Part shown: one piece after another, positions 1,069 through 17,272 of the stretch
How positions within the stretch are numbered: position 1 is the first letter of the stretch
How the letters are laid out: each line of letters begins with the position of its first letter
NCBI GenBank assembly: GCA_963977445.1
Contig: CAXBPH010000145.1
Location: 1-17,272, forward strand
Direction: 5' to 3'
DNA from: an uncultured bacterium
GTDB taxonomy: Bacteria; Hydrogenedentota; Hydrogenedentia; Hydrogenedentales; JAEUWI01
DNA: 17,272 nucleotides
The notes under the pieces: model-generated
What the model was told of the DNA's origin: nothing
The model's input: only the letters and a program-made list of their open reading frames with translations
The model's database searches: none
Program-made: the position numbers and the translations under genes

Positions 1069-1120
1069 CTAAACCCATCAACAACGTATAGCGGGCACTC
1101 ACAGGAGTTATGGATAATTT

Positions 1121-1160
1121 TGCACCACAAATTGCCCAATATGCAAACAGATTCTCCCAA
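1121..1160 (+). promoter_or_regulatory. tandem AraC-type operator half-sites (TGCA-N10-CCCAA x2, 21-bp period)
   Basis: TGCACCACAAATTGCCCAA (1121-1139) and TGCAAACAGATTCTCCCAA (1142-1160) lie in the divergent araC/GH88 spacer. A candidate -10 TATGAA is at 1186-1191. Confidence 0.7.
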
Positions 1161-1295
1161 ACAGCCAATCGATCTCCTGGCGCGGTATGAAATACTAACA
1201 ACCATGAGCGAAAGGGGCCTTGGGTAGACCTTTCCCCAATCCACTACGTACACTACGCCTATTCGCGGATAGTAACCTGCAGTGAGGTCAAAATC

Positions 1296-2681
1296 ATGCA
1301 ACTGAACAACACCCTGAACCCCGCAGACCTGCGGGGCTCACTTGACGCCTTTTTCGCCATGGCCGGAGAGACCATGCTGTCTCTGGATCAGCACTGGAAT
1401 GCCGCCCAGGGTTCCCCCGTATTCACCGAGGCGGGCGTATACACCAGCCGTGGCTGGACCGAGTGGACCCAGGGATTCCAGTATGGCTGCCTGATTCTCC
1501 AATTTGACGCGACCAACGACGAGCGATTTCTCGAGTTGGGCAAATTGCGTATCCACGACCACATGGCCCCCCACATCAGTCATATCGGGGTTCACGATCA
1601 TGGATTCAACAACCTCTCGACCTACGGCAATGTGCTGCGCCTCGCAGAAGAGGGCCGCATCGACATGCAGGAAGAGGTAAAAGCCTTCTATCAACTTGCC
1701 ATCAAGGTTTCGGGGGCGGTCCAGGCGTCTCGCTGGTCTAAGATCGCCGATGGAACGGGATATATTCATAGCTTCAACGGCCCCCACTCCCTTTTCAGTG
1801 ACACCATCCGTTCCTGTCGCATTCTGATGAAGGCCCACCAACTGGGACACGTTCTCATGGGCGAAGGGGACCGAAAAATCTCTCTGTGTGAACGGGCCGT
1901 GCAGCACATCCAGAACACCCACCGCTACAATGTTTATTACGGTGAAGGCCGTGACATTTATGATGTGCCCGGCCGCGTGGTGCATGAGAGCATCTTCAAC
2001 ATGACCGACGGACAGTACCGGTGTCCCAGCACCCAACAGGGCTATTCCGCTTTTTCCACGTGGACGCGTGGCCTGGCCTGGGTCCTCCTCGGTGCGGCGG
2101 AGGAGCTGGAATTTCTTGACGAACTGAGCGAAACGGACTGCGACGCTGTCGGCGGCAAGGAAGCGTTCCGTGAGATGCTACTTTCGATGGCCCAAGCCAC
2201 CGCCGAATTCTATATTGAACATACGTGCTTTGACGGTATTCCCTTTTGGGACACGGGAGCCCCTGGACTCGTCCATCTTCCTGACTATCAGACGGCGGTT
2301 TCGGATCCTTATAACCCCCACGAACCCGTTGACAGTTCCGCCGCCGCGATTGTGGCACAAGGCCTTCTGCGCCTCGGTCGTTACTTCGGGGTCGATACCG
2401 AGCCGGGCATGCGTTATTTCCAGGCAGGTCTTACGGTCTCCAAGACCCTATTAAGTGCCCCCTATATTTCTGAAGACCCCAAACATCAGGGGCTACTACT
2501 CCATTCCGTCTATCACCGACCCAATGGTTGGGACTACGTTCCCGAAGGACAGTCCGTACCCTGTGGCGAGTCTTCCATGTGGGGAGACTACCACGCCATG
2601 GAGTTGGCCGTTTATCTGAAGCGCCTGATCGATAACGAAGCCTACCTGACCTTTTTCGGCCCCACAGACGCTGCAAAATAG
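1296..2681 (+). CDS. glycoside hydrolase family 88-like (unsaturated glucuronyl hydrolase-like, (alpha/alpha)6 barrel), cytoplasmic
   Basis: UGL-type motifs: EWTQGF, HDHGF, FSDTI, QGYSAFSTWTRGLAW, DSSAAAI, WGDYHAME. No signal peptide. GAGG SD before the ATG. Confidence 0.85.
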   Translation: MQLNNTLNPADLRGSLDAFFAMAGETMLSLDQHWNAAQGSPVFTEAGVYTSRGWTEWTQGFQYGCLILQFDATNDERFLELGKLRIHDHMAPHISHIGVHDHGFNNLSTYGNVLRLAEEGRIDMQEEVKAFYQLAIKVSGAVQASRWSKIADGTGYIHSFNGPHSLFSDTIRSCRILMKAHQLGHVLMGEGDRKISLCERAVQHIQNTHRYNVYYGEGRDIYDVPGRVVHESIFNMTDGQYRCPSTQQGYSAFSTWTRGLAWVLLGAAEELEFLDELSETDCDAVGGKEAFREMLLSMAQATAEFYIEHTCFDGIPFWDTGAPGLVHLPDYQTAVSDPYNPHEPVDSSAAAIVAQGLLRLGRYFGVDTEPGMRYFQAGLTVSKTLLSAPYISEDPKHQGLLLHSVYHRPNGWDYVPEGQSVPCGESSMWGDYHAMELAVYLKRLIDNEAYLTFFGPTDAAK

Positions 2682-2729
2682 AACTATCTAACTTCCGGAA
2701 GTGCACCGGGAAGGAGAGGAATATACCCC

Positions 2730-3875
2730 ATGAATACTATCAAACTCGGAATTATCATGAATGGCGTCACGGGCCGGATGGGTACGAATCAGCACTTGGC
2801 CCGTTCCATTGCGGCAATTCGCTCCGAAGGGGGCATCAAGGTTGACGACAATACGCTCATCGTGCCCGAGCCCATCCTCGTGGGACGGAACGCCAATAAA
2901 CTTGCAGCCCTGGCGAAGGCCCATGGTGATCTTCCCTACTCTACCGATTTGGCGTCCCTGTTGAAGGATGATGCCTACCCTGTCTATTTCGACGCCCAAG
3001 TGACCCAACGTCGTTTCCCCGATGTGAAGGCCGCTATTGCCGCCGGAAAGCATATCTACTGCGAAAAGCCTTCAGCGGAAACGACCGCCCAGGCCCTGGA
3101 GCTACACACCCTGGCGGAAGCAGCCGGCATTAAGCATGGTGTTGTGCAGGACAAACTGTGGTTGCCGGGTTTTCTTAAACTGAAATACCTCATCGACACG
3201 GGGTACTTTGGGCGCATCCTGTCGGTCCGTGGTGAGTTTGGCTACTGGGTATTCACAGGCGAAGATCAGCCTGCCCAGCGTCCCTCCTGGAATTACCGCA
3301 AGGAAGACGGCGGCGGCATCATTTCCGACATGCTTTGCCACTGGCGCTATCTGATCGACAATCTTTTTGGCAAGGTCACCTCCGTCTCCTGTCTTGGTGC
3401 GACCCATATCCCCACACGCATTGATGAGCAGGGCAAGCCCTACGAATGCACGGCCGATGACGCGGCCTATGCGACCTTTGTCACCGACCAGGATATCATC
3501 TGCCACTTCAATTCGTCGTGGTGCGTTCGTGTTCGCCGAGATGACCTCGTAACCCTGCAGGTCGACGGTACCCACGGGTCGGCCGTAGCCGGATTGCGGA
3601 ATTGTGTTACCCAGCACGGAGCCAATACACCGAAGCCCGTCTGGAACCCGGATATTGACAGTCCTATCGATTTCAACGGCGGTTGGACGGATGTACCGAC
3701 CAATCAGCTTCACGACAATGCCTTTAAGGTTCAGTGGGAAAAGTTCCTGCGACATGTGGCCCTGGACGAAGAATTTCCCTGGAAATTGAAAGAAGGCGCA
3801 AAAGGCGTACAGCTTGCGGAGTTGGGTATCCAGAGCTGGAACGAGCGTCGCTGGCTCGACGTGCCAGAACTGTAG
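2730..3875 (+). CDS. Gfo/Idh/MocA-family NAD(P)-dependent oxidoreductase
   Basis: N-terminal Rossmann segment GIIMNGVTGRMG, plus AGKHIYCEKP and GGGIISDMLCHW motifs. Strong SD AGGAGAGGA. Confidence 0.93.
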   Translation: MNTIKLGIIMNGVTGRMGTNQHLARSIAAIRSEGGIKVDDNTLIVPEPILVGRNANKLAALAKAHGDLPYSTDLASLLKDDAYPVYFDAQVTQRRFPDVKAAIAAGKHIYCEKPSAETTAQALELHTLAEAAGIKHGVVQDKLWLPGFLKLKYLIDTGYFGRILSVRGEFGYWVFTGEDQPAQRPSWNYRKEDGGGIISDMLCHWRYLIDNLFGKVTSVSCLGATHIPTRIDEQGKPYECTADDAAYATFVTDQDIICHFNSSWCVRVRRDDLVTLQVDGTHGSAVAGLRNCVTQHGANTPKPVWNPDIDSPIDFNGGWTDVPTNQLHDNAFKVQWEKFLRHVALDEEFPWKLKEGAKGVQLAELGIQSWNERRWLDVPEL

Positions 3876-3938
3876 TATTCGGGACATCCGACACCCCCGC
3901 CACCCGTTTAATTGACCCTAAATAATGGAAAAGTACCT

Positions 3939-4724
3939 ATGAAGAAAGTAGCACTCATCACCGGCGCCAGCCGGGGCATCGGCCGGGGCATTGCCCTCTC
4001 CCTCGCGGCCCAGGGCTATGATATTGCCGGGGTAGCGACCAATCCCGACCAGAACAACATAGAATCGGGACTCTACGAAGTAAAACAGCGGGTAGAGGAA
4101 CTCGGCCAGTCCCTGTGCCCTATTCGCGGCGACGTAGCCAATCTTGACGATCATGGACGTATCCTGGCAGAGACCCTCGATGCCTTTGGCCAAGTAGACC
4201 TCCTCGTGAACAACGCCGGCGTATCTCTGGCCCAGCGTTTTGACATCCTGGAGACAACCCCTGAGAGTTATGACCGCGTCATGGGGATAAATCTTCGGGG
4301 CACCTTCTTCTTGACCCAGGTCGTCGCCAATCACCTGGTGGCCAATCCACGGCGCGACGCCGCCATCAAACCGGCCATCGTATTTATTACGAGCATCTCT
4401 GCCACGGCGGCCAGTGTGAATCGGGCGGAGTATTGCATCAGTAAGATGGGTGGCACGATGGCGGCACAGCTCTTCACCATCCGCCTGGCTGATCATGGCA
4501 TTAATGTCTATGAAATTCAGCCGGGGGTCATTCGCTCAGACATGACCGCAGGAGTCACGGACAAATACGATGCACTCATTGAAGACGGATTGCTGCTGCA
4601 AAAACGCTGGGGCACCCCCGAGGATGTGGGCAAGGCCGTCTTTGCCCTATCCGAAGGGTATTTTGACTATGCTACCGGCGCCGTTATCGAAGTGGGCGGC
4701 GGCTTTGGTATCCGTCGATTATAG
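3939..4724 (+). CDS. short-chain dehydrogenase/reductase (classical SDR; usually auto-annotated 3-ketoacyl-ACP reductase, more likely a sugar-acid oxidoreductase)
   Basis: TGASRGIG cofactor motif, VNNAG, catalytic Ser (SISA) and YCISK. Start moved from the TTG at 3912 to the ATG at 3939 (MKKVALITG). Confidence 0.92.
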   Translation: MKKVALITGASRGIGRGIALSLAAQGYDIAGVATNPDQNNIESGLYEVKQRVEELGQSLCPIRGDVANLDDHGRILAETLDAFGQVDLLVNNAGVSLAQRFDILETTPESYDRVMGINLRGTFFLTQVVANHLVANPRRDAAIKPAIVFITSISATAASVNRAEYCISKMGGTMAAQLFTIRLADHGINVYEIQPGVIRSDMTAGVTDKYDALIEDGLLLQKRWGTPEDVGKAVFALSEGYFDYATGAVIEVGGGFGIRRL

Positions 4725-4765
4725 AGTACATTTTATTTCCGTTCACTCCCTTTCCCTCCCACCGC

Positions 4766-4799
4766 AAACGTCATCGACAATCCGTCGAATTGAGTTTTT
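4766..4799 (+). terminator. weak, imperfect intrinsic terminator candidate after the SDR gene
   Basis: AAAC-G-TCA-TCGAC-AATCC-GTCGA-AT-TGA-GTTT stem with bulges, followed by a T-rich run. Confidence 0.35.
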
Positions 4800-4900
4800 C
4801 GTTTGTCTGAATACCGATGCTCAGGTACACTACGAGCATGTAAAATCATATCGCGCATCCCGGTCATATCGGACGCGAATCTATCCTGGAAAGCACCGCC

Positions 4901-5224
4901 ATGTATTTGTTTACCATCACCGCCACCCCAAACTCCGACAATGAAGAACACGCGAAATTCGAATGCGCCGACGTCTCTGCCTGGATTAACTTTCAGGAGC
5001 CCGCTGGTGCAGAAGAACTCGCACGATTCTATATTCGCGAATCGGGCTGGGCACCGGGCGACACCTTGGCATTTTTCGAAATCGTGGATGATGCCCTGGA
5101 CGACGATGACGAAACCTTGGAATTCGTGAATGAAGCGAAAGAATTTGGACACAGTCTCCTGATCGAGGCCTGGGAAGAAGAGGATGAGGATGAAAATACG
5201 GACGAGAACCCTTCCAACAATTAA
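4901..5224 (+). CDS. small, very acidic hypothetical protein (107 aa)
   Basis: ATG start and protein-like composition with aromatic-containing motifs (VSAWINF, ARFYIRESGW). D/E-rich C-terminal half. Fills the gap between the SDR and sulfatase genes on the same strand. Confidence 0.75.
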   Translation: MYLFTITATPNSDNEEHAKFECADVSAWINFQEPAGAEELARFYIRESGWAPGDTLAFFEIVDDALDDDDETLEFVNEAKEFGHSLLIEAWEEEDEDENTDENPSNN

Positions 5225-6635
5225 CTCATTAAGGCGTTTACGATCTGGCGTACTGGTGGCAGCCCTGGCTGCCATTGCCTTTCCCGCGAGCAGCCTCCCG
5301 AACTTCATTATCATCAACACAGATGATCAGGGCTACGCCGACCTCGGGGTCTATGGTGCAAAAGACTTCAAAACCCCCAACCTGGATCAAATGGCCCGCG
5401 AGGGCATTCGATTCACCAACTTTTATGATCCGGCCAATGCGTGTAGTCCGTCACGCGCGGCCCTCATGACGGGATGCTACCCGGTTCGGGTCAGCCTCCC
5501 CCATGTACTCGGACCCACCTCACTCCATCCCGACCGAATCCCTGTCGGGCTGAACCCCGACGAGGTGACTATCGCGGAAGTCTTGAAGGCCAAAGGCTAT
5601 GCCACCGCCTGTGTCGGTAAATGGCACCTCGGTGACTTGCCCCAATGGCTGCCTACGAATCAGGGCTTCGACTCGTTCTTTGGATTGCCCTACTCCAATG
5701 ATATGTGGCCCAATCATCCCACGGCCAAAAAGTATCCCGATCTGCCGCTTCTCGAGGGCACCGAAGTGCTCGAAGTTAATCCCGACATGGACCAACTGAC
5801 GACACGCTACACCGAACGGGCCCTCTCCTTTATCAAGGCCAACAAAGAACACCCTTTCTTCCTCTACCTGGCCCACAGTATGCCCCACGTTCCGCTGGGC
5901 GTATCTGACAAGTTTCGCGGTGCCTCCAAACAGGGCATGTATGGCGATGTCATTATGGAAATCGATTGGTCCGTCGGGGAGATCATCAAGACCCTCAAGG
6001 AACTTGGGCTCGATGAAAACACCATGATCGTCTTCACCTCCGACAATGGTCCCTGGCTCAGTTATGGCGATCACGCGGGCTCGGCACTGCCACTTCGGGA
6101 GGGCAAAGGTACCACCTGGGACGGCGGTCACCGGGTTCCTTGTATCGTCCGTTGGCCGGGTCAGATTCCCGCAGGACAGGTGAGCGACCTCCTCGTGTCC
6201 AATTTCGACTTTCTCCCCACCATCGCCGCCCGGGTGGAGGTCCCTCTTTCCGCCGATCGTAAGATTGATGGCGAAAATATCTGGTCCATACTTCGCGGAG
6301 TAGAAACCGACACGTCGCCCCACGACGCCTTCTACTTTTATCGCGGCCCCGAGCTTGTTGCCGTTCGCCAAGGCCCCTGGAAACTCCATCGTCCCCACGG
6401 CTATCGCAGTCTGGACGGCGGCGAGGGGGGCTCAGGCGGCACGCCCGTAGTCTACACGCAACTTGAGACGCCCGTGGCGCTATATAACCTGGATACGGAC
6501 ATTGGGGAGTCCAAGAATCTCTCCACGAGCCACCCGGACAAAGTTATTGAACTGGAAGCCCTCATGGCCAGGTTTGACGAGACCATGAAACAGGAGGCAC
6601 GCCCCGCAGGCGAAGCCCCCGCACCCGGCAATTGA
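5190..6635 (+). CDS. secreted formylglycine-dependent (S1) sulfatase, Cys-type, arylsulfatase A-like
   Basis: PNFIIINTDDQG, CSPSRAALMTG (CxPxR), GKWHLG, FTSDNGP, GKGTTWDGGHRVP, LYNLDTDIGE. Basic/hydrophobic signal peptide ending near AFPA. Start is either 5184 or 5190. Confidence 0.95.
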   Translation: MKIRTRTLPTINSLRRLRSGVLVAALAAIAFPASSLPNFIIINTDDQGYADLGVYGAKDFKTPNLDQMAREGIRFTNFYDPANACSPSRAALMTGCYPVRVSLPHVLGPTSLHPDRIPVGLNPDEVTIAEVLKAKGYATACVGKWHLGDLPQWLPTNQGFDSFFGLPYSNDMWPNHPTAKKYPDLPLLEGTEVLEVNPDMDQLTTRYTERALSFIKANKEHPFFLYLAHSMPHVPLGVSDKFRGASKQGMYGDVIMEIDWSVGEIIKTLKELGLDENTMIVFTSDNGPWLSYGDHAGSALPLREGKGTTWDGGHRVPCIVRWPGQIPAGQVSDLLVSNFDFLPTIAARVEVPLSADRKIDGENIWSILRGVETDTSPHDAFYFYRGPELVAVRQGPWKLHRPHGYRSLDGGEGGSGGTPVVYTQLETPVALYNLDTDIGESKNLSTSHPDKVIELEALMARFDETMKQEARPAGEAPAPGN

Positions 6636-6645
6636 TAGAAGACAC

Positions 6646-6683
6646 AAACTCCGAGTCTGAATACCTCAGACTCGGAGTTTTTT
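6646..6683 (+). terminator. intrinsic terminator, possibly bidirectional, between the convergent sulfatase and OPT genes
   Basis: Perfect 15-bp stem AAACTCCGAGTCTGA / TCAGACTCGGAGTTT with a 5-nt loop (ATACC), ending in a T6 run. Confidence 0.9.
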
Positions 6684-6741
6684 CTATCTATTTTGTTCGT
6701 CGTCGGATTTCTAATGCTTCAGCGACGTAACCATAGTGCCA

Positions 6742-8622
6742 TCAGCTCTCGCTCTCTCGACGGCAGGCAATTTTATAAAAGACGATGCAGACGCCCATGA
6801 AGAACGCAAGCGAAGAGAGTTGGTGAATATGAGGGGACATGAAGCCCATCTCAATGGCGAAGTCCCACCCCTCTATTTTGGGAATGGCCAAACCGATCCC
6901 CATGAGCGCTTCGCCCGCTATCAGTCCTGAACCGAACAACAAGCCCCCCTGACTCAGACCGTCCGATGCTTCTCTATCTCGGTTAACCCAGGCGTGCAGT
7001 AGCCCCCCCACGATGATCGGTACGGACAGAGCAAGTGGAAGATAGATGCCTACTGCAATGGGCATCACATGGAGCCGTTTGCTGGACCCCGAATACGTCA
7101 TGAATGCGTCTATGAGGATTATCAGTATACCGACACCAATACCCATCCAAATCATGGTATACGGCAAGTCGCCATCGCCGAAAAAACCTTTCACCAGACT
7201 GGCAAACAAGGTCGCCTGCGGTGCCAGGAGTTGGTCACTTCCAATTACGTAGGATTTGTGGAGGAGTGCGAGAACCGGGGCCATGGCCAGCGCGGGCACA
7301 ACTACCCCGAGCACTTCGGCCCACTGCTGCCGTTCCGGCGTGGCACCCACCAATTGGCCGGTTTTCAAATCCTGAGCTACATCGCCCGCCGTGCAGGCCA
7401 CACAGCAGACCACGCCGGCAACCCCCAACGTGGCCAGAATGGCACTGTCTCCACTGCCACCAGATAGCCAGATAACCACGGCGGCCAGGAGTACCGCGCA
7501 TATCGTCATGCCCGACACCGGAGAATTGGAGGAACCAACAAGACCCACGATGTAGGTCGCCACGGCTGCAAACAGAAAGGCCGCAGGGATCATAACGATC
7601 GTAGAAACCAGGGCCAGCCCGAGACTCTTAATGAGTACAACGTAGAGCACAAAGGTACCGACCACGGAAAAGGCCAGAATGAAGAACAAGGCCTTGAGAG
7701 ACATATTACGCTCTGTACGGATGTCGGTTTCCCCAGCGCCTTGCCCTGCCTGGCCAAGACTCTTAATCCCCGCGACGAGCCCCGCCCGTACGTTGACGAT
7801 AGAATAGAGGCCGCCCACCAGCATCGTGCCCACCCCGAGATATCGTACCTGGGTGCTCCACAGGGTCCATGCATGGGCCACAGGATCCGCCTCGTTAAGG
7901 GCGAAGGAAGGGCCCGCAATGGGGATCGTAATGAGCCAGCCAATCACACCACCGAGGAATACCTGCGACGCCACACCGAGCCCCACAATATAGCCCACGG
8001 CCAATAATGCCGGACTCATATCGGACCCCGCATAGAAAACACGCTGTCCCCGGAGTATGGCGACTTCTACCGTTCCCTGTATGACCTGCAATCCGGAAAC
8101 CATCAACTTAAACAAGGCCCCCAGCCCAAAGCCCCAAGCTATGGCCCGTATCGCCGAGCCACCCGCCTGGCCCACGGTAAGCACTTCCGCACACGCAACG
8201 CCCTCGGGGTAACGTAGGTCCTTCCGGTCCACTATCAACGCTTTACGGAGGGGAACCATGAACACGATGCCCAGCAACCCGCCCATCATGATTATTCCGG
8301 TGCTCACCCAATAGTCGAACTTATCCCAAACACCGGTTATGATGAGCGCGGGAAGGGTAAATATGGCACCGGCCGCCAGACTTTCACCCGTCGAGGCGAC
8401 CGTCTGGGAAATGTTGTTTTCAAGAACCGTACCCCGCTTGAAGCAGCCCCGGAGTACGGCCATGCTCACGACGGCAGCAGGAATCGAAGCGCTAACGGTC
8501 ATGCCAGCATAGAGCCCCAGGTAGACATTGGCGGCACCAAGGACCACGGCGAGCAGCACACCAAGCCCCAGAGACAGGACGGTGGATTCTGGGATATCCT
8601 CATTGTGCGGGTCCGACTTCAT
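6742..8622 (-). CDS. oligopeptide transporter, OPT family (bacterial YSL-like clade)
   Basis: AANVYLGLYAGMTVSASIPAAV, LENNISQT, LRYPEGVACAEVL, GSSNSPVSG, QDLKTGQLVGATP, APQATL, SGLIAGEAL, with many TM segments. ATG at 8622 is preceded by GAGGAG. Confidence 0.95.
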   Translation of the reverse strand: MKSDPHNEDIPESTVLSLGLGVLLAVVLGAANVYLGLYAGMTVSASIPAAVVSMAVLRGCFKRGTVLENNISQTVASTGESLAAGAIFTLPALIITGVWDKFDYWVSTGIIMMGGLLGIVFMVPLRKALIVDRKDLRYPEGVACAEVLTVGQAGGSAIRAIAWGFGLGALFKLMVSGLQVIQGTVEVAILRGQRVFYAGSDMSPALLAVGYIVGLGVASQVFLGGVIGWLITIPIAGPSFALNEADPVAHAWTLWSTQVRYLGVGTMLVGGLYSIVNVRAGLVAGIKSLGQAGQGAGETDIRTERNMSLKALFFILAFSVVGTFVLYVVLIKSLGLALVSTIVMIPAAFLFAAVATYIVGLVGSSNSPVSGMTICAVLLAAVVIWLSGGSGDSAILATLGVAGVVCCVACTAGDVAQDLKTGQLVGATPERQQWAEVLGVVVPALAMAPVLALLHKSYVIGSDQLLAPQATLFASLVKGFFGDGDLPYTMIWMGIGVGILIILIDAFMTYSGSSKRLHVMPIAVGIYLPLALSVPIIVGGLLHAWVNRDREASDGLSQGGLLFGSGLIAGEALMGIGLAIPKIEGWDFAIEMGFMSPHIHQLSSLAFFMGVCIVFYKIACRRESES

Positions 8623-8779
8623 TGTGTACTCCTCTTTACGTAACACTGCCTGAATCGGCCAGCCCCATTGCGCATTGCAATACTCGGACGCAGGCTACAA
8701 ACAACATTCTTGGCCGAACTCTGCGTTGCAAATCCTTGAAATCATTTGTATTCCCTCTGGCTTCGCGCCTTGATCCCGA

Positions 8780-9159: not shown

Positions 9160-9786
9160 TTAGGCGCCGGTAGCCTCCGAGCCCGTTCGCGTCAATGGGT
9201 AAGACGCCTCCTCCACGAGATGGGCACCACAGGTTGCTTCCTCCAGCGCCCAGCGGCCGTGGTCTACGTTGGCAATGGAAACCGTTGCATTCCCTGCACC
9301 GACCCCTTCGCTGGCAGTCGCACCAAAAAACTCGGAAACAAAGGCCTGACAAACCATGCCATGGGAGACAACGGCCAGATTCTTGCATTGATTTTCATAG
9401 CATTCTCCGATCCGTGTAAAGGTCTCCCGCACACGAGCCCGAAACTCTGCCATAGCTTCCCCACCAACCGGAACGAATGATTCGTCGGTGAAAAATTCAG
9501 GAGCGGCATCATAGGAGGACTCCACCAGTTCACCTGGATCCCGTTCCCGCAAACCAACGTCGTAGGCCATAGATGCCCCGGTACGTGCGGCAACAATACA
9601 CCCCGTCATTACCGCGCGCCGCAAGTCACTACACACAATTTGGTCGATTCCCTCGTCCATAAACCGACGGGCAAGTAGGTCCGCTTGCCGAATACCCCGA
9701 TCATTCAGGGGCACTTCCTGGTAGCCCTGCATCTTGCGGGCACGGTTATAATCGGTTTCCCCGTGTCGGATTACGAAAACTCGCAC
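9160..9786 (-). CDS. histidine phosphatase superfamily protein (phosphoglycerate mutase-like, CobC/GpmB type)
   Basis: IRHGETDYN, SDLRRA, LRERDPG and VSHG motifs. GTG start at 9786 with AAGGAG SD just upstream. Confidence 0.92.
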   Translation of the reverse strand: MRVFVIRHGETDYNRARKMQGYQEVPLNDRGIRQADLLARRFMDEGIDQIVCSDLRRAVMTGCIVAARTGASMAYDVGLRERDPGELVESSYDAAPEFFTDESFVPVGGEAMAEFRARVRETFTRIGECYENQCKNLAVVSHGMVCQAFVSEFFGATASEGVGAGNATVSIANVDHGRWALEEATCGAHLVEEASYPLTRTGSEATGA

Positions 9787-9840
9787 GACAGCTCCTTTTG
9801 AACAATAAAGCGCACAAGTGTCTCCCATATCCAATTACAG

Positions 9841-9856
9841 ATCTGTGCGCACGGAT
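9841..9856. promoter_or_regulatory. palindromic candidate upstream activator sequence (enhancer) for the sigma54 promoter
   Basis: ATCTGTGC|GCACGGAT is a 16-bp inverted repeat with one mismatched pair, bracketed by CAATT...AATTG. It is centred about 100 bp upstream of the -24 element. Confidence 0.5.
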
Positions 9857-9944
9857 GGAATTGCTGCTACGCGCCACACGCATAAACGGGCCCCGCTATT
9901 GCTATACGTTGATGGACCGGCGCTATTCATTCTGGGTCGGTTCA

Positions 9945-9961
9945 CTGGCACTATACTTGCT
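9945..9961 (+). promoter_or_regulatory. sigma54 (RpoN) -24/-12 promoter upstream of the Pat-type gene
   Basis: CTGGCACTATACTTGCT matches YTGGCAC-N5-TTGCW with exact GG-N10-GC spacing. It is intergenic, correctly oriented and about 100 bp before the start codon. Confidence 0.85.
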
Positions 9962-10062
9962 GTATCTTGTGAACAGCTATGTTATGATAGCCCTTGATCT
10001 TGGCGATATCAACTACCACTTACCGAAGTTAACACTTCTACGTTCAGTCGGGAGCAATAATC

Positions 10063-12816
10063 GTGGCGTCCACCAGTCCATCCTCCGAAAAAAACTTCTC
10101 CGCGGATAAAAACCTCAGTCGTATGGGTCTGGGCAGTATTGAGGCCATTTTCAATCCGAAAACGGTTGCCCTCATCGGCGCTACCGAGAAGCCCGGCAGC
10201 GTTGGCCGCACAATACTCTGGAATCTCATCAGCAACCCCTTTGGCGCGACCATCTACGCGGTAAACCCGAAACGGGCCAATGTACTCGGAATCAAGGCCT
10301 ATCCGAGCATTTCGGATGTTCCGGAACACGTCGATCTCGCCATACTGGTGACGCCCGCCTCGTCTATCCCTGGACTGGTCCGAGAATGCGTCCAGGCGGC
10401 CGTCAAGGGTGCCATTATTATCTCCGCTGGTTTCAAAGAAGTTGGTGAAGAAGGCATCGCCCTGGAATCGGAAGTGCTGGAGGCCGCCCGTCAAGGTAAC
10501 ATGCGTATACTCGGCCCCAATTGCCTCGGCCTCATGAATCCCGTAAGCGGTATGAACGCCACCTTTGCCAGCACCATCGCCCGCCCGGGTAGCGTCGGCT
10601 TCATCAGCCAGAGTGGCGCCCTGTGCACGTCCATCCTCGATTGGAGTCACCAGACCAATGTGGGGTTCAGCGCCTTCGTTTCTATCGGCTCCATGCTCGA
10701 TGTGGACTGGGGCGATCTCATCTATTATCTTGGCGACGACCCCCATACAAAAAGTATCGTCATCTACATGGAATCCATCGGCAACGCCCGGTCTTTTCTC
10801 TCGGCCGCCCGCGAAGTGGCTCTGAGTAAGCCCATCATCGTAATCAAAGCGGGCCAGACCGATGCGGCCGCACAGGCAGCCGCTTCGCATACGGGTTCTC
10901 TGGCCGGTAGCGATGGCGTGCTTTCGGCAGCCTTTCGCCGCAGTGGCGTTTCCCGTGTATATAGTATCGACAGCCTCTTCCACATGGCCGAAGTATTGGA
11001 AAAACAGCCCCGCCCCCGAGGGCCACGTCTTACCATACTCACCAATGCCGGTGGGCCGGGCGTGCTGGCTACCGACGCCGTCATCAGCGATGGTGGTGAA
11101 CTCGCGGATCTGGCACCCGAAACTATCGAAAAACTCGACGCCGTATTGCCCGGAGCCTGGAGCCATGGTAATCCCATTGACATATTGGGCGATGCCGATC
11201 CGGAACGCTACGCAAAAGCCCTGGAGATCGCCGCGCAGGATCCCAATAGCGATGGCCTCCTGGTGATCCTTACCCCACAGGCAATGACCGATCCCACCAA
11301 AACGGCCGAAAAACTTGCCCAAGTGCGTATGCCTCCCCGTAAGCCACTCCTTGCAAGCTGGATGGGCGGAGCCGATGTGGAAGCCGGTGATGCCATACTG
11401 AACGCCCACGATATCCCCACCTTTGACTATCCTGATATGGCGGCCCGGGTTTTTAACCTCATGTGGCGTTATAACTACAACATTTCTGGGCTCTATGAAA
11501 CGCCGGCCCTCCCCGCTGACGACGCACTGAAAAGCCCCGATCGGGACACGGTCGCCAAACTGATTAATTCCGCCCGCGCCGCAGGTCATACGACCTTACC
11601 CGAACACGAATCGAAGAAAATACTTGCTGCCTATGGCATCCCCATTGTCCCGACAGAAGTCGCCAACAGTGCGGAGGAAGCGGTCGAAATCGCCGAGACA
11701 ATGGGCTACCCCGTCGTCCTCAAGCTCTATTCCAATACCATCACCCACAAGACCGATGTGGGCGGCGTACAATTGAATCTAAAGTCGGCCAAGACCGTTA
11801 CCGGTGCCTATGAAAGTATTCGACAGGGCGTTACTGAGAAAGTCGGGGCAGAGCACTTCGAGGGCGTTGTCGTCCAGCCCATGGTTCAAAACGAAGGCTA
11901 TGAAATCATTATCGGCAGCAGTATTGACCCTCAGTTCGGTCCTGTGCTCTTGTTTGGAGCCGGGGGCGAACTGGTTGAGGTCTTTAAGGACAGTGCCCTT
12001 GGCCTTCCCCCACTCAATACCACACTCGCACGACGAATGATGGAACAGACAAAGATCTATACGGCGTTAAAGGGTGTGCGCGGAAGAAAACCCGTTGATC
12101 TCAATGCCCTGGAACAGCTGCTTGTTAAATTCAGCAAACTCGTTGTGGAGCAACCCTGGATCAAGGAAATTGATATTAATCCCCTGTTGGCTTCGCCCGA
12201 TGGCCTCCTGGCACTCGATGGGCGCGTATTGTTACACGGACTGGACGTAGACGAAGCGGACCTCCCACGATTGGCAATACGCCCTTACCCCCTCGAATAC
12301 AGCAATGACTGGACCACTAAGAAAGGGGAGACCGTTCATATCCGCCCCATCTTGTCTGAGGACGAGCCCGCCATGGTTGACTTCCACAAGACTTTGTCAA
12401 CCGACACCGTCTATTCCCGGTATCTTGGACTCATCTCCCTGGATCAGCGGGTCAGTCATGAACGCTTAACGCGTCTTTGCTACATCGACTACGACCGACA
12501 GATAGCTTTGGTGGCGCTCCGCAATAACGAGAAAACCGGTGGAAAAGATATCGTCGCCGTTGGCCGCCTCATGAAAGAGCATAGCCGACGGGAAGGCGAA
12601 TTCGCCATGGTGGTCAGCGACGCCTTTCAGGGACATGGTCTGGGCTCCGAATTACTTCAACGCCTTGTAGATATGGGCCGTAAAGAAGGGCTATCCCGAA
12701 TTACCGGAACCGTCCTTGCCGATAACCGGGCCATGCTCCACGTATGCCAGAAGATTGGTTTCACCCTGAACAAAAAGACGGGCGATCCCACCGAAGTCTC
12801 CATCGACATCGCCTAA
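10063..12816 (+). CDS. pat: acyl-CoA synthetase (NDP-forming)-like / GNAT fusion, protein lysine acetyltransferase Pat/Pka family
   Basis: CoA-binding domain (ALIGAT...YAVNPK, GPNCLG), [34 protein letters not shown]-grasp (YPVVLK...[15 protein letters not shown]) and C-terminal GNAT (IRPI...[15 protein letters not shown]). GTG start after GGGAG; the ATG at 10123 is an alternative. Confidence 0.92.
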
Positions 12817-12843
12817 AGCCGCCTTTGACAATTGGAAGCGCAG

Positions 12844-12856
12844 GTCTCGGACGCGC
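12844..12856 (+). repeat. 13-bp direct repeat, copy 1 (GTCTCGGACGCGC)
   Basis: Identical to 13885-13897. The two copies flank the beta-propeller gene. Confidence 0.6.
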
Positions 12857-12857
12857 C

Positions 12858-12886
12858 TAAGGTGGGCGGCCCGTCCGCCACCCTTA
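12858..12886. terminator. GC-rich imperfect hairpin between convergent genes
   Basis: TAAGGTGGGCGG-CCCGT-CCGCCACCCTTA overlaps the stop codon of the minus-strand gene. No clear U-tract. Confidence 0.4.
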
Positions 12887-13846
12887 ACGCATCAAGGGGG
12901 CCACACGTATTCCGTTGGTGGTGATGATATGTACTTCGTGGGCGTGTGCCGTGGGATGGAAAAACTCCCAGACCACTTCTTTATCCCGCGTTACTTCAAA
13001 GACCTTGGGCATGTTCGGATCTTTCTGAGCGTAACTGCAAATGACCATATTGTTATTGGGCATTCGTTGTCCGCCACACGGATCGCTCAGCCGCCCACCC
13101 ACTTGACTGTTGTCGAGATACCAGACGACTTCATTATCGGGGCCAAATTCGGCAACGCGGTTTCCGTGGGTCAGGTTCACATGGATATTCCCGTTGGGCA
13201 GCAAGATAGCCGTAAAGGGCCAGCTGTCTTCATCTCGATTTCCAAAGAGGGGTAAGTCCGTGGGAATCTCCCGTATGACTTCACCAGCGGGAGTGTATTC
13301 CTTCACTTTGAAGGCAAGGAGATGGGGCACAATATAATTACCATTGGGCAGTTTCCGTGCCATCCGAGTCTGCATGTGATCATTGTCGGTATCCGGCTGA
13401 AGGGGCACTTCCACCTGGATGGCTCCATCGGCCCCGACTTCGAGAATACGGGGCTTGGCTCCCCGTTCAACGATCATGGTGTTGCCATTTTCCAGACGAA
13501 ATACGGTGCCCAATTCCTTGTTGACGGGGTCGAGTTCATAGGTCCACACGACCTCTTCCGTTCCGGCTTTGTATTCACGGGCCGCATTATCAATAGAGAG
13601 TAGAACGTTACCATTTTCCAGGACATACCCATCCCGTGAGTAGCCCTTTACTTCCCAGGTTAGCTCACTGGCTTCGTTGAACAGATAGGTTCCCGTGCCC
13701 CCGGTAATCAACAGAGAGTGCGTAATTCCCTGCGAACTTTCCTGTCGGATCGGTGCCTTCTCGGCGGCCTGGGCGGCGCTGGGTAGCGATACCAGAAGCC
13801 CCATCAATATCGTATTGTGAATAAGCTGCACTACGCGTCGCATCAT
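12884..13846 (-). CDS. secreted beta-propeller protein (PQQ-like/arylsulfotransferase-like repeats), function unknown
   Basis: Signal peptide ending SAAQA. Repeated blades (LENGNVLL, LENGNTMI, LPNGNYIV, LPNGNIHV, MPNNNMVI) with E/V-V-W motifs. GGGAG SD. Confidence 0.8.
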   Translation of the reverse strand: MMRRVVQLIHNTILMGLLVSLPSAAQAAEKAPIRQESSQGITHSLLITGGTGTYLFNEASELTWEVKGYSRDGYVLENGNVLLSIDNAAREYKAGTEEVVWTYELDPVNKELGTVFRLENGNTMIVERGAKPRILEVGADGAIQVEVPLQPDTDNDHMQTRMARKLPNGNYIVPHLLAFKVKEYTPAGEVIREIPTDLPLFGNRDEDSWPFTAILLPNGNIHVNLTHGNRVAEFGPDNEVVWYLDNSQVGGRLSDPCGGQRMPNNNMVICSYAQKDPNMPKVFEVTRDKEVVWEFFHPTAHAHEVHIITTNGIRVAPLMR

Positions 13847-13884
13847 TTGCTCTCTCCCGCTTCAGGCCAATACCATTTCTACGC

Positions 13885-13897
13885 GTCTCGGACGCGC
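13885..13897 (+). repeat. 13-bp direct repeat, copy 2 (GTCTCGGACGCGC), within the hairpin CGCGTC-TCG-GACGCG
   Basis: Identical to 12844-12856. Confidence 0.6.
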
Positions 13898-13901
13898 GAT
13901 G

Positions 13902-13931
13902 ACCCTAACATAGGACTGGGAAGACGTGCAA
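13902..13931 (-). promoter_or_regulatory. possible sigma70 promoter for the beta-propeller gene
   Basis: Minus strand TTGCAC-18 nt-TAGGGT with a TG extended -10. Pattern match only. Confidence 0.3.
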
Positions 13932-13957
13932 TTCGTTTGGATATAAACCCGTGCCCG

Positions 13958-15724
13958 TCACGACGGAACGCCGGGACGATGCAGCTTGTAGGTACGAATA
14001 CGATGGTAAAGCGTATTGCGCGCGACGCCCAACAAGCGCGCGCTCTTTGCAACATTCCAATCCGTTTGCTCCAGGGCTTCAAGGATTCGGACGCGCTCAT
14101 AATCCTCCGAGCGCGGCAAATCATCGCCTATGGGACCATTCACTTTGGACGGACTATTGGAAATCGAAGAACCTGGTCCTTTGGCAATCTCTGGAGGCAG
14201 ATGTTCCGGTTGGATAATGGAATCGTGGCAAACGATGAAGGCCCGCTCGAGACAATTCTCCAGTTCGCGGACGTTTCCGAACCAGGGATAGGGTACAAGC
14301 AGATCAAGGGCCGCCGGGGAGAGACCGGAGATTTCCTTCTTAAACGTCGTATTGAACTTCTTGCAAAGATGATCAATCAGCAAGGGAATATCGGCGCGTC
14401 GCTCCCGTAGTGCTGGCAGTTCAAGGCGCACTACATTCAGCCGGTAATACAGGTCTTCTCTGAAGGAATTTTCTTCAATCTTTCGAACCAGATTCTGATT
14501 GGTTGAGGCAATAATCCGTACATCCACTTGTACAGGGCGTGTATCACCCACCCGTTCAAATTCTCGTTCCTGCAACACCCGAAGCAAACGTAGTTGCAGG
14601 CGGGGAGAGACATCACCAATTTCATCGAGAAGTATGGTCCCACGATTTGCGGCCTCGAAACGTCCGACTCGGTCACGGACGGCCCCGGTGAATGCCCCTT
14701 TAACGTGACCGAACAATTCACTTTCCAGAATGTCCTCTGCCAGGGCGGCACAGTTAACTTTAATGAAGGGGCCATTGGCGCGGTGGCTCGTGTAGTGGAG
14801 CGCCGCCGCGACAAGTTCTTTGCCGGTGCCACTCTCACCGTAAATCAGGACGGTGGAATCAGTCTCGGCGACATTCTCGATAAGATTGAAGACCTCCAGC
14901 ATTTTGGAGGACTTCCCTATCATGCTCTGGTACTGATGACTGGAGGCCAACTGTTTTTCGAGTCGGGTAATTCGGGTCAGATCCCGAATCACAAGCACAG
15001 CACCCCCAGAGGCGGGCCCACCGGATTCCAATGGCGTGGTCGACATGACAAAGACCTTCTCACCACTCCGTGGGAGTGTTGCCTCCACACGAAATTCCTC
15101 CACCTCGTTTCTCGTGCTCAAGGTAGTAGAGAGCGCCTCACCCGCTTTCTTTAACAAACCAGCGAAGATACTATCCGCGGGTTTCCCGGCCATCTCCTCC
15201 ATATCTTCCCCCAGCATCTGACTTGCTGCCAGATTGACCTGACGGACAACGCCGGTCGCATCAACCGTAACTATACCCTCTTTTACGGCGTGAAAAAGTG
15301 CTTCCAGTTCTCGGCGATAGGAATCCATACGCGATGCGTAGTCATCTCGTTCTGCCAACAAATGGAGGCGATCCACGGCCATGCGAACAACACGCTTTAA
15401 GGCGTCACCGGTAACGGGTTTGGAAAGATAATCGAAGGCCCCCAGCCGCACCGCCTCGGTGGCGGTCTCAATACTTGGTTCCCCCGTTATCATGATCACC
15501 ATGGTTTCGGGGGAATTCTTACGAAAATATCGCAGTATGTCTACCCCCGTCTCTCCGCCCAAAACGATGTCGGTCACAACCACATCAAAGTGATCCTCTT
15601 CCAGATGTCGCACCGCCTCGGCATAATTCTCTGCGGCGCGGACAGAGTAACCCGCATCTTCCAGAAAACGGGCAAAAGTCAAGCGAAGTACCGCCTCATC
15701 TTCGACTATCAATACATTACACAT
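13958..15724 (-). CDS. sigma54-dependent response regulator (NtrC/AtoC/ZraR-like enhancer-binding protein), REC-PAS-AAA+-Fis HTH
   Basis: Receiver (LIVEDE, VVTDIVL, AFDYLSKP), PAS-like segment (EGIVTVDATG...VNLAAS...VLVIRDLT), Walker A GESGTGKE, ESELFGH..GAFTGA, Walker B LLDEIG, FREDLYYRLNV, and HTH WNVAKSARLLGVARNTLY. ATG at 15724. Confidence 0.95.
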   Translation of the reverse strand: MCNVLIVEDEAVLRLTFARFLEDAGYSVRAAENYAEAVRHLEEDHFDVVVTDIVLGGETGVDILRYFRKNSPETMVIMITGEPSIETATEAVRLGAFDYLSKPVTGDALKRVVRMAVDRLHLLAERDDYASRMDSYRRELEALFHAVKEGIVTVDATGVVRQVNLAASQMLGEDMEEMAGKPADSIFAGLLKKAGEALSTTLSTRNEVEEFRVEATLPRSGEKVFVMSTTPLESGGPASGGAVLVIRDLTRITRLEKQLASSHQYQSMIGKSSKMLEVFNLIENVAETDSTVLIYGESGTGKELVAAALHYTSHRANGPFIKVNCAALAEDILESELFGHVKGAFTGAVRDRVGRFEAANRGTILLDEIGDVSPRLQLRLLRVLQEREFERVGDTRPVQVDVRIIASTNQNLVRKIEENSFREDLYYRLNVVRLELPALRERRADIPLLIDHLCKKFNTTFKKEISGLSPAALDLLVPYPWFGNVRELENCLERAFIVCHDSIIQPEHLPPEIAKGPGSSISNSPSKVNGPIGDDLPRSEDYERVRILEALEQTDWNVAKSARLLGVARNTLYHRIRTYKLHRPGVPS

Positions 15725-15747
15725 AGGCTTTATTTCCCTCAATCACT

Positions 15748-17272
15748 TTACTTCTCAGGTCCATCCAGTGGAAGAAACACGCTGAATCGTGTAGACACAT
15801 CAACCTCGCTGTTCACCTCGAAGAATCCCCCGTGATCTTTTACGATGCCATCGGAAACAGAAAGGCCCAGGCCCGTCCCCTTGTCCCGCCCTTTGGTCGT
15901 GAAAAACGGATCAAAAATTCGTTGTCGGGTGGACTCGGTCATGCCCGTCCCCCAATCGTCCACCGTCATCATGAGAAAAGGGCACCCGTTGCGAAAAATC
16001 GGTCTTGTGGCGATTGCCATCCTCTTTTCCGGGTCACTCTCCGGGTACCGGTCATCAAGTGCGTGTACCGCATTGATAATGAGGTTCATTAACACCTGTT
16101 GCAACTGTTCTGGACGGCAGCGTATACGGGGCAACGTATCAGGCAATTGGAGGTCCAATGCTATATGGGATTTTTCGATCTTTTTTCGACTGAGGGAAAG
16201 CACCGACTCCACGACATCATGGATGGACGCGTAGGAGTACTGCTCGCACTTCTGCCGCGAAAAAGTGAGGAGATTCTTGACGATCGTAGCGACCCGATCG
16301 GCTTCCGAGCGAATCAGCTCGGCAAATTGCCTGTCGGGCGAATCCAGGGGCATATTCTTGAGCAGAATGTCGGCACAATTCATGACGCCGTTAATCGGAT
16401 TATTGATCTCATGGCCTACACCGGCCGCCAACTCGCCAATCGATGCCAGTTTGGAGGCCTGGATTACCTGTGCTTCCGCTTCCCGACGCTCCACAGCCTC
16501 GCCCAGCGTCCGCGCGATGGCCTCTATCATGGCGCAGTCTTCCCGGAGCAGTTTTCCCGATATCCCCTCTTCCACGGCCTCTCGGTAAACCAACTCCAAC
16601 TTGCCGCGATTTCGGCCCCCCACTATTATGGGAGCACTAAAGGTCCAGGAGGTGGTTTTTACCATTATTTCTTCATAGACTTGTCCATCAAACACAATGC
16701 GCGCCCGGGTAATCTCGGGATAGGTGCACGCCGGCCGGACCAGTTGCGCCACAGACCGAAACACGTCTGTTTCGACCGCTTGCTCCCGTATTACTTCGCC
16801 GACACTATAGAGACACAAAATTTTCTTGTTGCGCTCTTTCAGTTCGCCCAGCAATCGCTCCTGTTCCTGGCGCGCCTTAAATTCCACGGAAATATCCCGG
16901 AGTAACCCCGAGTAGTATCGGTGTCCGTCAATACATACTTCGCTGATGGATAAATGAACCGGGATGGCAGAGCCGTTTCTGTGCTGACCGGTAACTTCGC
17001 GGCCAATGCCGATAATTCGCCGCACCCCGGTCTCGTGATAATTACGAATGTAACTGTCGTGATGGATGGATACCTCTTCGGGCATTATCATGCGGACATT
17101 CTGACCCAGCAATTCTTCTCGGCTGAACCCAAACATACGCTGAGAAGCCAGGTTCGTCTCGAGAATAATGCCGGCCTCGTCTATCGTGATAATCGCATCG
17201 ATGGTGCTCTCCACCAAACCGCGAACCCAGACATCGCTCGCCCGAGTCGTTATCAACGAAGATACGATATCT
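15748..17272 (-). CDS. sensor histidine kinase with FixL-like PAS, a GAF-like domain, HisKA and HATPase (5' end probably outside the window)
   Basis: H box [12 protein letters not shown] box [34 protein letters not shown]. The PAS contains HDSYI...IIGIGR. The frame stays open from 17256 to the window edge (DIVSSLIT). Confidence 0.93.

Follow-up and report, generated by a model that had tools for sequence, protein, structure and literature searches.

Does an oxygen sensor control acetate production, or the acetylation of proteins, in an uncultured bacterium of the order Candidatus Hydrogenedentales? The question is raised by a 17,272-bp stretch of its DNA (the window; the entire contig C145), in which the gene of a histidine kinase with a FixL-like PAS domain adjoins that of a sigma-54 activator (a bacterial enhancer-binding protein, bEBP), and a sigma-54 promoter precedes the gene of a Pat-type protein (pat). 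An original prediction, made from the DNA alone, had proposed that these parts form one circuit coupling O2 or redox status to protein lysine acetylation or to acetate/acyl-CoA flux. The genome (G000; 7.1 Mb, 464 contigs, 94% complete) was compared within a set of 133 genomes of the order; relatives are labelled G001 and so on. From this comparison, kinase, activator and pat promoter likely constitute one circuit, and we consider it rather probable that sensor, regulator and one target of a low-oxygen regulon of Candidatus Hydrogenedentales are all encoded in the window. Two observations carry the proposal of one circuit: the promoter is kept in relatives, and a motif learned from pat-free DNA recurs upstream of it at the usual enhancer distance. 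The features concerned are the following.

9946-9960, (+) strand: sigma-54 promoter TGGCACTATACTTGC, exact TGGCAC-N5-TTGC (-24 TGGCAC, -12 TTGC)
9809-9824, no strand: strong dyad AGCGCACAAGTGTCTC, predicted upstream activating sequence (UAS), 14.1 bits, starting 137 bp before the promoter TGG
9799-9814, no strand: weak site overlapping the strong dyad, 9.0 bits; the predicted UAS spans 9799-9824
9834-9849, no strand: weak second dyad ATTACAGATCTGTGCG, 6.6 bits, 25 bp after the strong site
10063-12816, (+) strand: pat, Pat-architecture protein of 917 aa, GTG start, from Pfam domains
10885-10911, 11740-11769 and ~12337-12765, (+) strand: in pat, SHTGSLAGS with the catalytic His, a further motif and the GNAT domain, from alignments
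13958-15742, (-) strand: sigma-54 activator (bEBP), 594 aa, REC-PAS-AAA+-HTH_8, from Pfam and motifs
14816-14839, 14615-14632, 14681-14698 and 15569-15586, (-) strand: in the activator, Walker A GESGTGKE, Walker B LLDEIG, GAFTGA and receiver DVVVTD, from the sequence
15748-17271, (-) strand: soluble histidine kinase, PAS-HisKA-HATPase_c, from Pfam; 5' end lost at the contig end
17047-17064, 16996-17016 and 16396-16413, (-) strand: in the kinase, HHDSYI, IIGIGRE and H-box HEINNP, from the sequence

The kinase, its neighbouring activator and their loci

The activator has what marks an NtrC-type bEBP, namely Walker A and B motifs and GAFTGA, an N-terminal receiver and a C-terminal Fis-type helix-turn-helix. 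It matches PF00158 Sigma54_activat (E 8.9e-71), PF00072 REC, PF02954 HTH_8, a PAS domain and AAA_lid, and the bEBP was indeed intact as first described, GESGTGKE, LLDEIG and GAFTGA all being located. Proximity alone is weak evidence for a regulatory link, since the genome holds at least 27 strong Sigma54_activat matches (27 among the 37 matches listed). A single orthologue of this particular activator (at least 54% identity; paralogues at most 43%) is present in 53 of the 133 genomes, and no paralogue in G000 matches it at E 1e-100 or better.

The PAS domain of the kinase resembles the haem domains of Rhizobium and Bradyrhizobium FixL (1d06, 1dp6; E ~1e-27, 45-50% identity over ~120 residues) and DosP (E ~1e-19). 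HDSYI with the proximal His, IIGIGR and HLSI align with both FixL structures, in support of the FixL-like PAS noted in the original prediction; we assume that the roles of these residues in FixL (proximal His, O2-contacting Arg of IIGIGR, distal HLSI) apply to the window kinase. Judging from these alignments, the kinase would bind haem and sense O2. The haem-PAS is followed by a middle region without a domain match, HisKA and HATPase_c; judging by orthologue lengths, the contig end removes just a few N-terminal residues. The kinase core is closest to AtoS, LvrB and ZraS. The NCBIfam FixL equivalog was not reached (202 bits vs a cut-off of 850), and AtoS and AtoC, the best equivalogs of the pair, also stayed below their cut-offs (213 vs 646 and 445 vs 714, respectively).

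The kinase lies directly upstream of the activator in 46 of 51 fetched loci, the window included, and in the same proportion of loci the adjacent regulator is NtrC-type and not LuxR-type FixJ. The FixL-type haem-PAS motif is kept in 40 of the 46 orthologous kinases, and two exceptions are cut by contig ends. The kinases of G020, G036 and G030 (L044, L045, L046) are 419-460 aa long and have no FixL-type PAS; their loci show neither dyads nor linkage to pta or pat, as though both the sensor input and the regulon had been given up or rearranged. Before the short kinase in L045 (G036, ~6780-6830) stand telomere-like repeats, CCCTAAG/CCCTAAA heptamers in a run. No FixL-type PAS was found beside the 73 nearest activator relatives outside the Hydrogenedentota, a set that was chosen by activator similarity and is no proof of absence elsewhere.

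Linkage of the pair to pat in related genomes, which had been put forward as a check of the circuit, is confined to the window's genus, G011 and G098; elsewhere pta-ackA is the commonest neighbour. The order kinase, activator, gene of a 320-aa protein and then convergent pat is found in G000, G001, G002, G003, G006 and G008. A different gene stands between activator and pat in G011, the pair is 16 kb from pat in G004, and in G005 the pair and pat are split between contigs, the activator being followed by 2.2 kb of other DNA; the contigs of G007 end at the locus. In G098, pat is directly convergent with the activator, and the gene before pat encodes an MtrC/MtrF-like multihaem cytochrome.

The same-strand gene directly downstream of the activator is pta, mostly with ackA next, in 19 of the fetched loci, which represent 12 genera of family f5. 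This place is taken by a tandem universal stress protein (USP) gene in 4 loci and by a REC-only gene in 4 others. Further neighbours encode AMP-forming Acs (G064), pyruvate:ferredoxin oxidoreductase (G036), and a HemN-like radical-SAM enzyme and cytochrome c554 (G029, G095). Sigma-54-like elements (GGCAC/T-N5-wTGC) occur in the activator-to-next-gene gaps of 20 loci, 16 of them among the 19 pta loci. Gene order makes pta-ackA either the ancestral neighbour of the pair or its commonest one, and acetate/acetyl-CoA metabolism together with anaerobic electron transfer is the common theme. In one activator-pta-ackA locus (L066 of G092), a gene for a group II intron reverse transcriptase/maturase lies at 1739-3439, a few hundred bases past ackA.

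Neither pta nor ackA was found in G000, at its 94% completeness. AckA is encoded in 53 of the 133 genomes (0/14 in the window's family, 46/54 in f5) and Pat, at E 1e-190 or better, in 44 (10/14 and 2/54, respectively). Only 4 genomes encode both, and in one of these (G020) the two are neighbours. In G098, a member of the pta-ackA family, pat adjoins the activator and no ackA was found. Because pat takes the position of pta-ackA and the distributions of AckA and Pat are complementary, we infer that pta-ackA was replaced non-orthologously by an ADP-forming synthetase inside one regulon.

The promoter and predicted enhancer of pat

The sigma-54 promoter before the Pat-type gene, originally described as near-consensus, proved to be an exact TGGCAC-N5-TTGC and the sole exact match in the window. 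The 7.1-Mb genome holds 37 such matches, compared to ~16 expected from base composition (own arithmetic), and encodes one rpoN (one Sigma54_DBD match, E 3.9e-64, contig C291). The promoter ends 103 bp 5' of the pat GTG start, and its position predicts a transcription start near 9972. With up to one mismatch allowed, the window contains 3 sigma-54-like matches, a number reached by 26 of 200 shuffles. Two (-) strand elements with one mismatch were taken as chance: one (13348-13362) lies inside the open reading frame (ORF) of the 320-aa protein and the other (6727-6741) just past the stop codon of an OPT transporter gene, and neither has a dyad upstream.

In relatives, the promoter element was defined as a GG-N10-GC upstream of pat orthologues that agrees with the consensus in 8 or more of 10 letters. 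All 8 other genomes in the genus, and G022, have it at -91 to -129 of pat, and G011 has it at -223. It was not found before 17 more distant pat homologues or 1 more distant synthetase-only homologue. All 11 promoter-bearing pat genes belong to genomes with an activator orthologue. In G017 and G028, which have no activator, a pat that keeps its catalytic His is preceded by neither promoter nor site.

The motif model was trained by expectation-maximisation on the non-coding part of 16 non-redundant activator-to-next-gene gaps, 15 of which were long enough, with pat loci excluded. From all top seeds the palindromic model converged on AGGACACTAGTGTCCT, that is wGsrCA-N4-TGysCw, which usually occurs in two copies 15 bp apart directly after the activator stop codon. 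It was used in place of a first, asymmetric position weight matrix (PWM), whose CTG tail penalised real sites; a regular-expression search for GCGCA-N4-TGT near sigma-54-like sites of G000 was not decisive (motif under-represented, 31 mixed matches). At 9 bits or more, the background in G000 is 0.119 matches per kb. The pat upstream regions with a sigma-54 promoter gave 12 matches in 8 of 11 regions (0.6 expected), whereas those without the promoter gave 1 match in 17 regions (0.97 expected). A PWM scan found only 36 sites of at least 14 bits in the whole 7.1-Mb genome. Over all fetched loci, a sigma-54-like element was present 95-160 bp downstream of sites of at least 10.5 bits in 61 of 110 cases, compared to 3.8 expected at random positions. 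At loci outside the training set, this was so for 32 of 57 sites (1.8 expected); some of these loci are close kin of training loci, which makes the numbers look more independent than they are.

Further support for a link between the pair and pat is provided by G004 and G022, in which the dyad and the promoter before pat persist with the pair 16 kb away and on another contig, respectively. Conservation of the -24/-12 element and the dyad, also named as a check beforehand, was evident from the promoter in 10 other genomes and from dyads of at least 9 bits in 8 of the 11 promoter-bearing regions. The palindromic site that had been noticed upstream of the promoter is real and probably corresponds to ATCTGTGCGC/GCGCACGGAT at 9841-9856, which the weak dyad ATTACAGATCTGTGCG overlaps; the stronger dyad AGCGCACAAGTGTCTC lies at 9809-9824. 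ATTACAGATCTGTGCG alone is not significant, and its 25-bp spacing resembles that of a 24-bp pair on contig C198. From comparative genomics, we predict that the dyads at 9799-9824 are the enhancer (UAS) of the pat promoter.

The probable 917-aa target protein and rival explanations

The pat product contains CoA_binding, Succ_CoA_lig, Ligase_CoA_2, ATP-grasp_5 and GNAT domains (Pfam) and is, by this architecture, an ADP-forming acyl-CoA synthetase (alpha and beta parts) fused to a C-terminal GNAT. Its best PDB matches are the protein-acetyltransferase chains 9it0 and 9isq (nearly full length, E 3e-163), presumably the E. coli PatZ structures reported in PMC12184503; ADP-forming CoA ligases and archaeal ACD1 come next. 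His276 within SHTGSLAGS aligns with H254 of 4xyl_A, and the same letters stand in the active 2csu, 4xyl and 8wzu; at this position PatZ shows only a gap and NTTAGMD. The HK.D.GGV motif of the beta part is found as well, so both marks of an ACD enzyme, a catalytic His in the alpha part and a His motif in the beta (ATP-grasp) part, are found. According to the available text of PMC12184503, H254 of ACD1 is L245 in PatZ, which abolishes ACD-like activity, and type I/II GNAT synthetase domains are defined, in the accessible part of PMC8556138, as inactive for want of the catalytic His. The protein has the Pat architecture, but with His276 retained it departs from the feature by which Pat/PatZ is defined, the loss of this His. 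Of 30 pat homologues in the order (L001-L030), 20 have the catalytic His (SHTG/SHVG) and 10, with degenerate longer loops, have lost it. All 11 promoter-bearing pat genes keep it, and no His-less homologue has the promoter. Because the catalytic His is retained and G000 shows neither pta nor ackA, the output is probably formation of acetate and ATP, which is likelier than lysine acetylation alone; of the coupling proposed at the outset, the branch towards acetate/acyl-CoA flux is the more probable one.

The genome also encodes an AMP-forming acetyl-CoA synthetase.

G000 contig C197:326-2185 (L169): Acs, NCBIfam 1005 bits vs cut-off 725, C-terminal motif SLPKTRSGKIMRR

This Acs is a candidate substrate of the GNAT half, and the lysine motif PKTRSGKIMRR is presumably the classic Pat substrate site. 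A bifunctional target under oxygen-sensor control, with a synthetase half that would make acetate and ATP at low O2 while a futile acetate cycle is blocked, is a possible extension that we put forward only tentatively.

The proposed mechanism is as follows. By analogy with FixL, the deoxy haem-PAS kinase would autophosphorylate at low O2 and then phosphorylate the receiver of the adjacent REC-PAS-AAA+-HTH activator, whose own PAS may add a second input. The activator would assemble on wGsrCA-N4-TGysCw dyads ~110-140 bp upstream of sigma-54 promoters and drive open-complex formation. These promoters would precede acetate/ATP-forming enzymes (pta-ackA or the synthetase-GNAT fusion), stress proteins and cytochromes. 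In the window's genus, which shows no pta or ackA, the 917-aa fusion probably takes over the conversion of acetyl-CoA to acetate and ATP (substrate-level phosphorylation) when O2 is scarce. An oxygen switch would be sensible because the phylum Hydrogenedentota is predicted, in the available text of PMC11406978, to be facultatively anaerobic, as the window's bacterium probably is.

Several points weigh against this circuit. The whole of it is deduced from sequence comparison: the binding of haem, O2 and DNA, the phosphotransfer, the activity of the enzyme and the sign of the regulation are all predictions. The related genomes share ancestry, and counts among them overstate support. Sites of at least 9 bits are lacking in 3 of the 11 promoter-bearing pat regions, one of which is cut by a contig end; the other two hold a near-threshold variant of the sister genomes' site. 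Two good sites are the rule at other targets, but the window promoter has a single strong one, its second being weak (6.6 bits). Five genomes (G020, G021, G030, G036, G040) have activator and pat, yet their pat has neither promoter nor site. A filter for enhancer plus promoter across G000 was not enriched (13 found vs 11.9 expected). The case consequently rests on one pre-specified promoter and its conservation, and the regulon appears small and not definable by scanning alone. In the kinase, one propionate-contacting Arg of BjFixL, presumably Arg206, is out of register by one (R-N in the window vs S-R in BjFixL). The synthetase part narrowly misses the NCBIfam TIGR02717 acetate-CoA ligase cut-off (550.1 bits vs 567.15), and the genome has about 25 other activators.

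It is this abundance of activators that raises the possibility that another of the ~25 serves the pat promoter, the convergent position being coincidental and the targets of the pair being its own operon and genes elsewhere. That pat is convergent and not co-oriented, with one gene between, that the adjacency is broken in G004 and G005, the unenriched genome-wide filter and the single strong site all speak for it. However, a motif derived from the activator-adjacent DNA of other families matches the pat region with 14.1 bits at a stereotyped distance, and the chance of a site of at least 14 bits in the 66-bp slot is ~3e-4 (own arithmetic). Moreover, site and promoter persist in G004 and G022 despite the genes being apart, and no G000 paralogue comes within E 1e-100 of this activator. 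We regard control by another activator as the least probable of the explanations weighed here. The same circuit with lysine acetylation as its output, the 917-aa protein being PatZ-type with a synthetase-like part that only senses acetyl-CoA, is scarcely more probable. The closest structures are acetyltransferase chains, the GNAT domain is intact and the Acs of the genome carries PKTRSGKIMRR. Against this, the catalytic His lost in PatZ (available text of PMC12184503 and PMC8556138) is kept in the window protein as SHTGSLAGS, the His-less paralogues of the order never have a sigma-54 promoter, and pat replaces pta-ackA in both position and distribution.

The wiring could also be correct and the signal another one. 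Haem-PAS sensors bind several diatomic gases, and the haem-PAS might report NO, CO or redox, or the PAS of the activator might give the decisive metabolic signal. The shifted propionate-contacting Arg, the extra PAS between REC and AAA+ and the multihaem cytochromes in the predicted regulon are compatible with this. The kept O2-binding Arg of IIGIGR and the distal HLSI residues argue for O2, and the predicted targets (acetate/ATP formation, USPs, cytochromes) fit oxygen limitation. A signal other than O2 is unlikely in our judgement, if less so than the two preceding explanations. We favour the low-oxygen circuit with pat as an acetate- and ATP-forming target.

Other predicted members, the neighbourhood and known systems

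Further members of the regulon were predicted in G000 from its best combinations of dyad and promoter besides those of pat.

C198 ~6900-7300 (L085 ~3400-3800): divergent multihaem cytochrome pair; two dyads of 16.9 and 16.5 bits, 24 bp apart, with sigma-54-like promoters both ways
C62: cytochrome c7/FeS/NrfD operon, enhancer-plus-promoter combination
C203: small ORF, enhancer-plus-promoter combination
C73: EB_dh/PKD protein, enhancer-plus-promoter combination, less convincing

The C198 genes encode an MtrC/MtrF-like protein of 693 aa and a c3/c7-like protein of 354 aa, which may form a module for extracellular electron transfer under the same control. The DNA upstream of the kinase lies beyond the contig end in G000, and autoregulation sites were read in genus relatives (L031 ~6400-6900; L036, L037, L081, L082), where a dyad and a TGGTAT/TGGCAC-N5-TTGC element precede the kinase gene. 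A second sigma-54-like element there faces a divergent gene for a CitMHS/DASS-type transporter (Na-sulfate-symporter family). This arrangement suggests that the pair is autoregulated and the anion transporter co-regulated.

Two more genes lie beside the parts of the circuit in the window.

9160..9786, (-) strand: His_Phos_1 histidine-phosphatase gene, divergent from pat, from Pfam
12884-13846, (-) strand: Mala_s_1-like protein, 320 aa, signal-peptide-like N-terminus, from Pfam

The histidine phosphatase probably starts at GTG 9784-9786 behind AAGGAG rather than at TTG 9834, because alignments with orthologues begin at residue 9-17 of the long ORF; translated from 9786, it opens VRVFVIRHGET. 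The intergenic region between this gene and pat is 276 bp, and the divergent pair is kept within the genus and in G011. On the other side, three (-) strand genes (320-aa protein, activator, kinase) converge on (+) strand pat. The 320-aa gene, which sits between activator and pat in the window's genus only, probably encodes a secreted beta-propeller and is not obviously a member of the circuit. As a target of the activator it was rejected: the 111-bp gap 13847-13957 has no in-register GG-N10-GC (by eye) and no site of at least 8 bits. In G005, a fragment of this gene follows the activator and a second copy adjoins pat. The left half of the window (205-8646) encodes an AraC regulator, a GH88-like hydrolase, a GFO/IDH/MocA oxidoreductase, an SDR, a sulfatase and an OPT transporter, and in gene content looks like a sulfated-polysaccharide utilisation cluster. 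Its OPT-sulfatase part remains beside the phosphatase-pat pair throughout the genus.

For the uncultured, globally distributed Hydrogenedentota, the circuit would be a first concrete model of oxygen-responsive control that names sensor, regulator, DNA motif and targets. In it, a FixL-type haem sensor would have been recruited to the sigma-54/enhancer route in place of FixJ, and the loci suggest that one regulon exchanged pta-ackA for an ADP-forming synthetase-GNAT fusion. Annotation of the His-keeping clade of Pat architecture as pure acetyltransferases is probably wrong, with consequences for how acetate formation is reconstructed in the metabolism of metagenome-assembled genomes. A bifunctional enzyme, if true, would overturn the textbook view of the synthetase domain in Pat-architecture proteins as always a dead sensor, and would show that a conserved FixL-type/sigma-54 regulon had exchanged pta-ackA for a non-orthologous enzyme.

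The circuit would be a novel wiring of familiar parts. In the literature searched (subscription journals not covered), neither the pairing of a FixL-type PAS kinase with a GAFTGA activator nor sigma-54 control of a gene of Pat architecture was found. The original prediction knew of no described system with this wiring; the exact pairing is indeed without a precedent found, but there are precedents for a haem kinase acting through sigma-54 (NmpRSTU) and for a two-component system controlling por-pta-ackA (LurSR). As in FixL (1dp6, 1d06), a haem-PAS is joined to a HisKA/HATPase core, with proximal His and regulatory Arg aligned; unlike in FixL-FixJ, the partner is an NtrC-type sigma-54 activator and not a LuxR-type regulator. 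In NtrY-NtrX, a haem-PAS kinase (Brucella NtrY) is combined with an NtrC-family regulator and linked to low-oxygen respiration. NtrY is membrane-bound with a HAMP domain, and NtrX is generally considered not to act via GAFTGA/sigma-54. In the window, by contrast, the kinase is soluble, GAFTGA is intact and sigma-54 promoters are present.

The predicted target has the domain order of E. coli PatZ and S. enterica Pat (CoA-binding, ligase-CoA, ATP-grasp, GNAT) and aligns over its full length, but keeps the synthetase catalytic His that PatZ has lost. To our knowledge, E. coli patZ is not a sigma-54 gene. With Korarchaeum cryptofilum ACD1 (PDB 4xyl) the alpha His254 and the beta HK.D.GGV motifs align, and the proposed fermentative role in ATP formation is the same. 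Unlike 4xyl, the window protein is bacterial and has alpha and beta parts fused in one chain with a GNAT, its activity being predicted.

The Lur regulator of Desulfovibrio vulgaris is reportedly sigma-54 dependent. The two-component system LurSR activates an operon with por, pta and ackA, and, as in the present case, regulator and sites are conserved across an order (available text of PMC6456213). It belongs to another phylum and has another motif, and the same text relates the LurS signal to lactate and, as far as it goes, describes no haem-PAS (PMC6456213). A close parallel in sensor and route is NmpRSTU of Myxococcus xanthus, in which, according to the accessible part of PMC11841059, the globin haem kinase NmpU signals via the hybrid kinase NmpS, with inverted logic, to NtrC-like NmpR. 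NmpR binds paired GCGCA-N5-TGCGC dyads upstream of sigma-54 promoters, that of its own operon included, and the targets given there are oxygen-utilisation genes and not acetate-forming enzymes (PMC11841059). The predicted circuit of the window would share with it a haem oxygen-sensor kinase, an NtrC-like sigma-54 activator, dyads and an oxygen-related regulon. Whereas the Nmp sensor is globin-coupled, the predicted sensor of the window is a FixL-type PAS kinase directly beside its activator, and the dyad has an N4 spacer.

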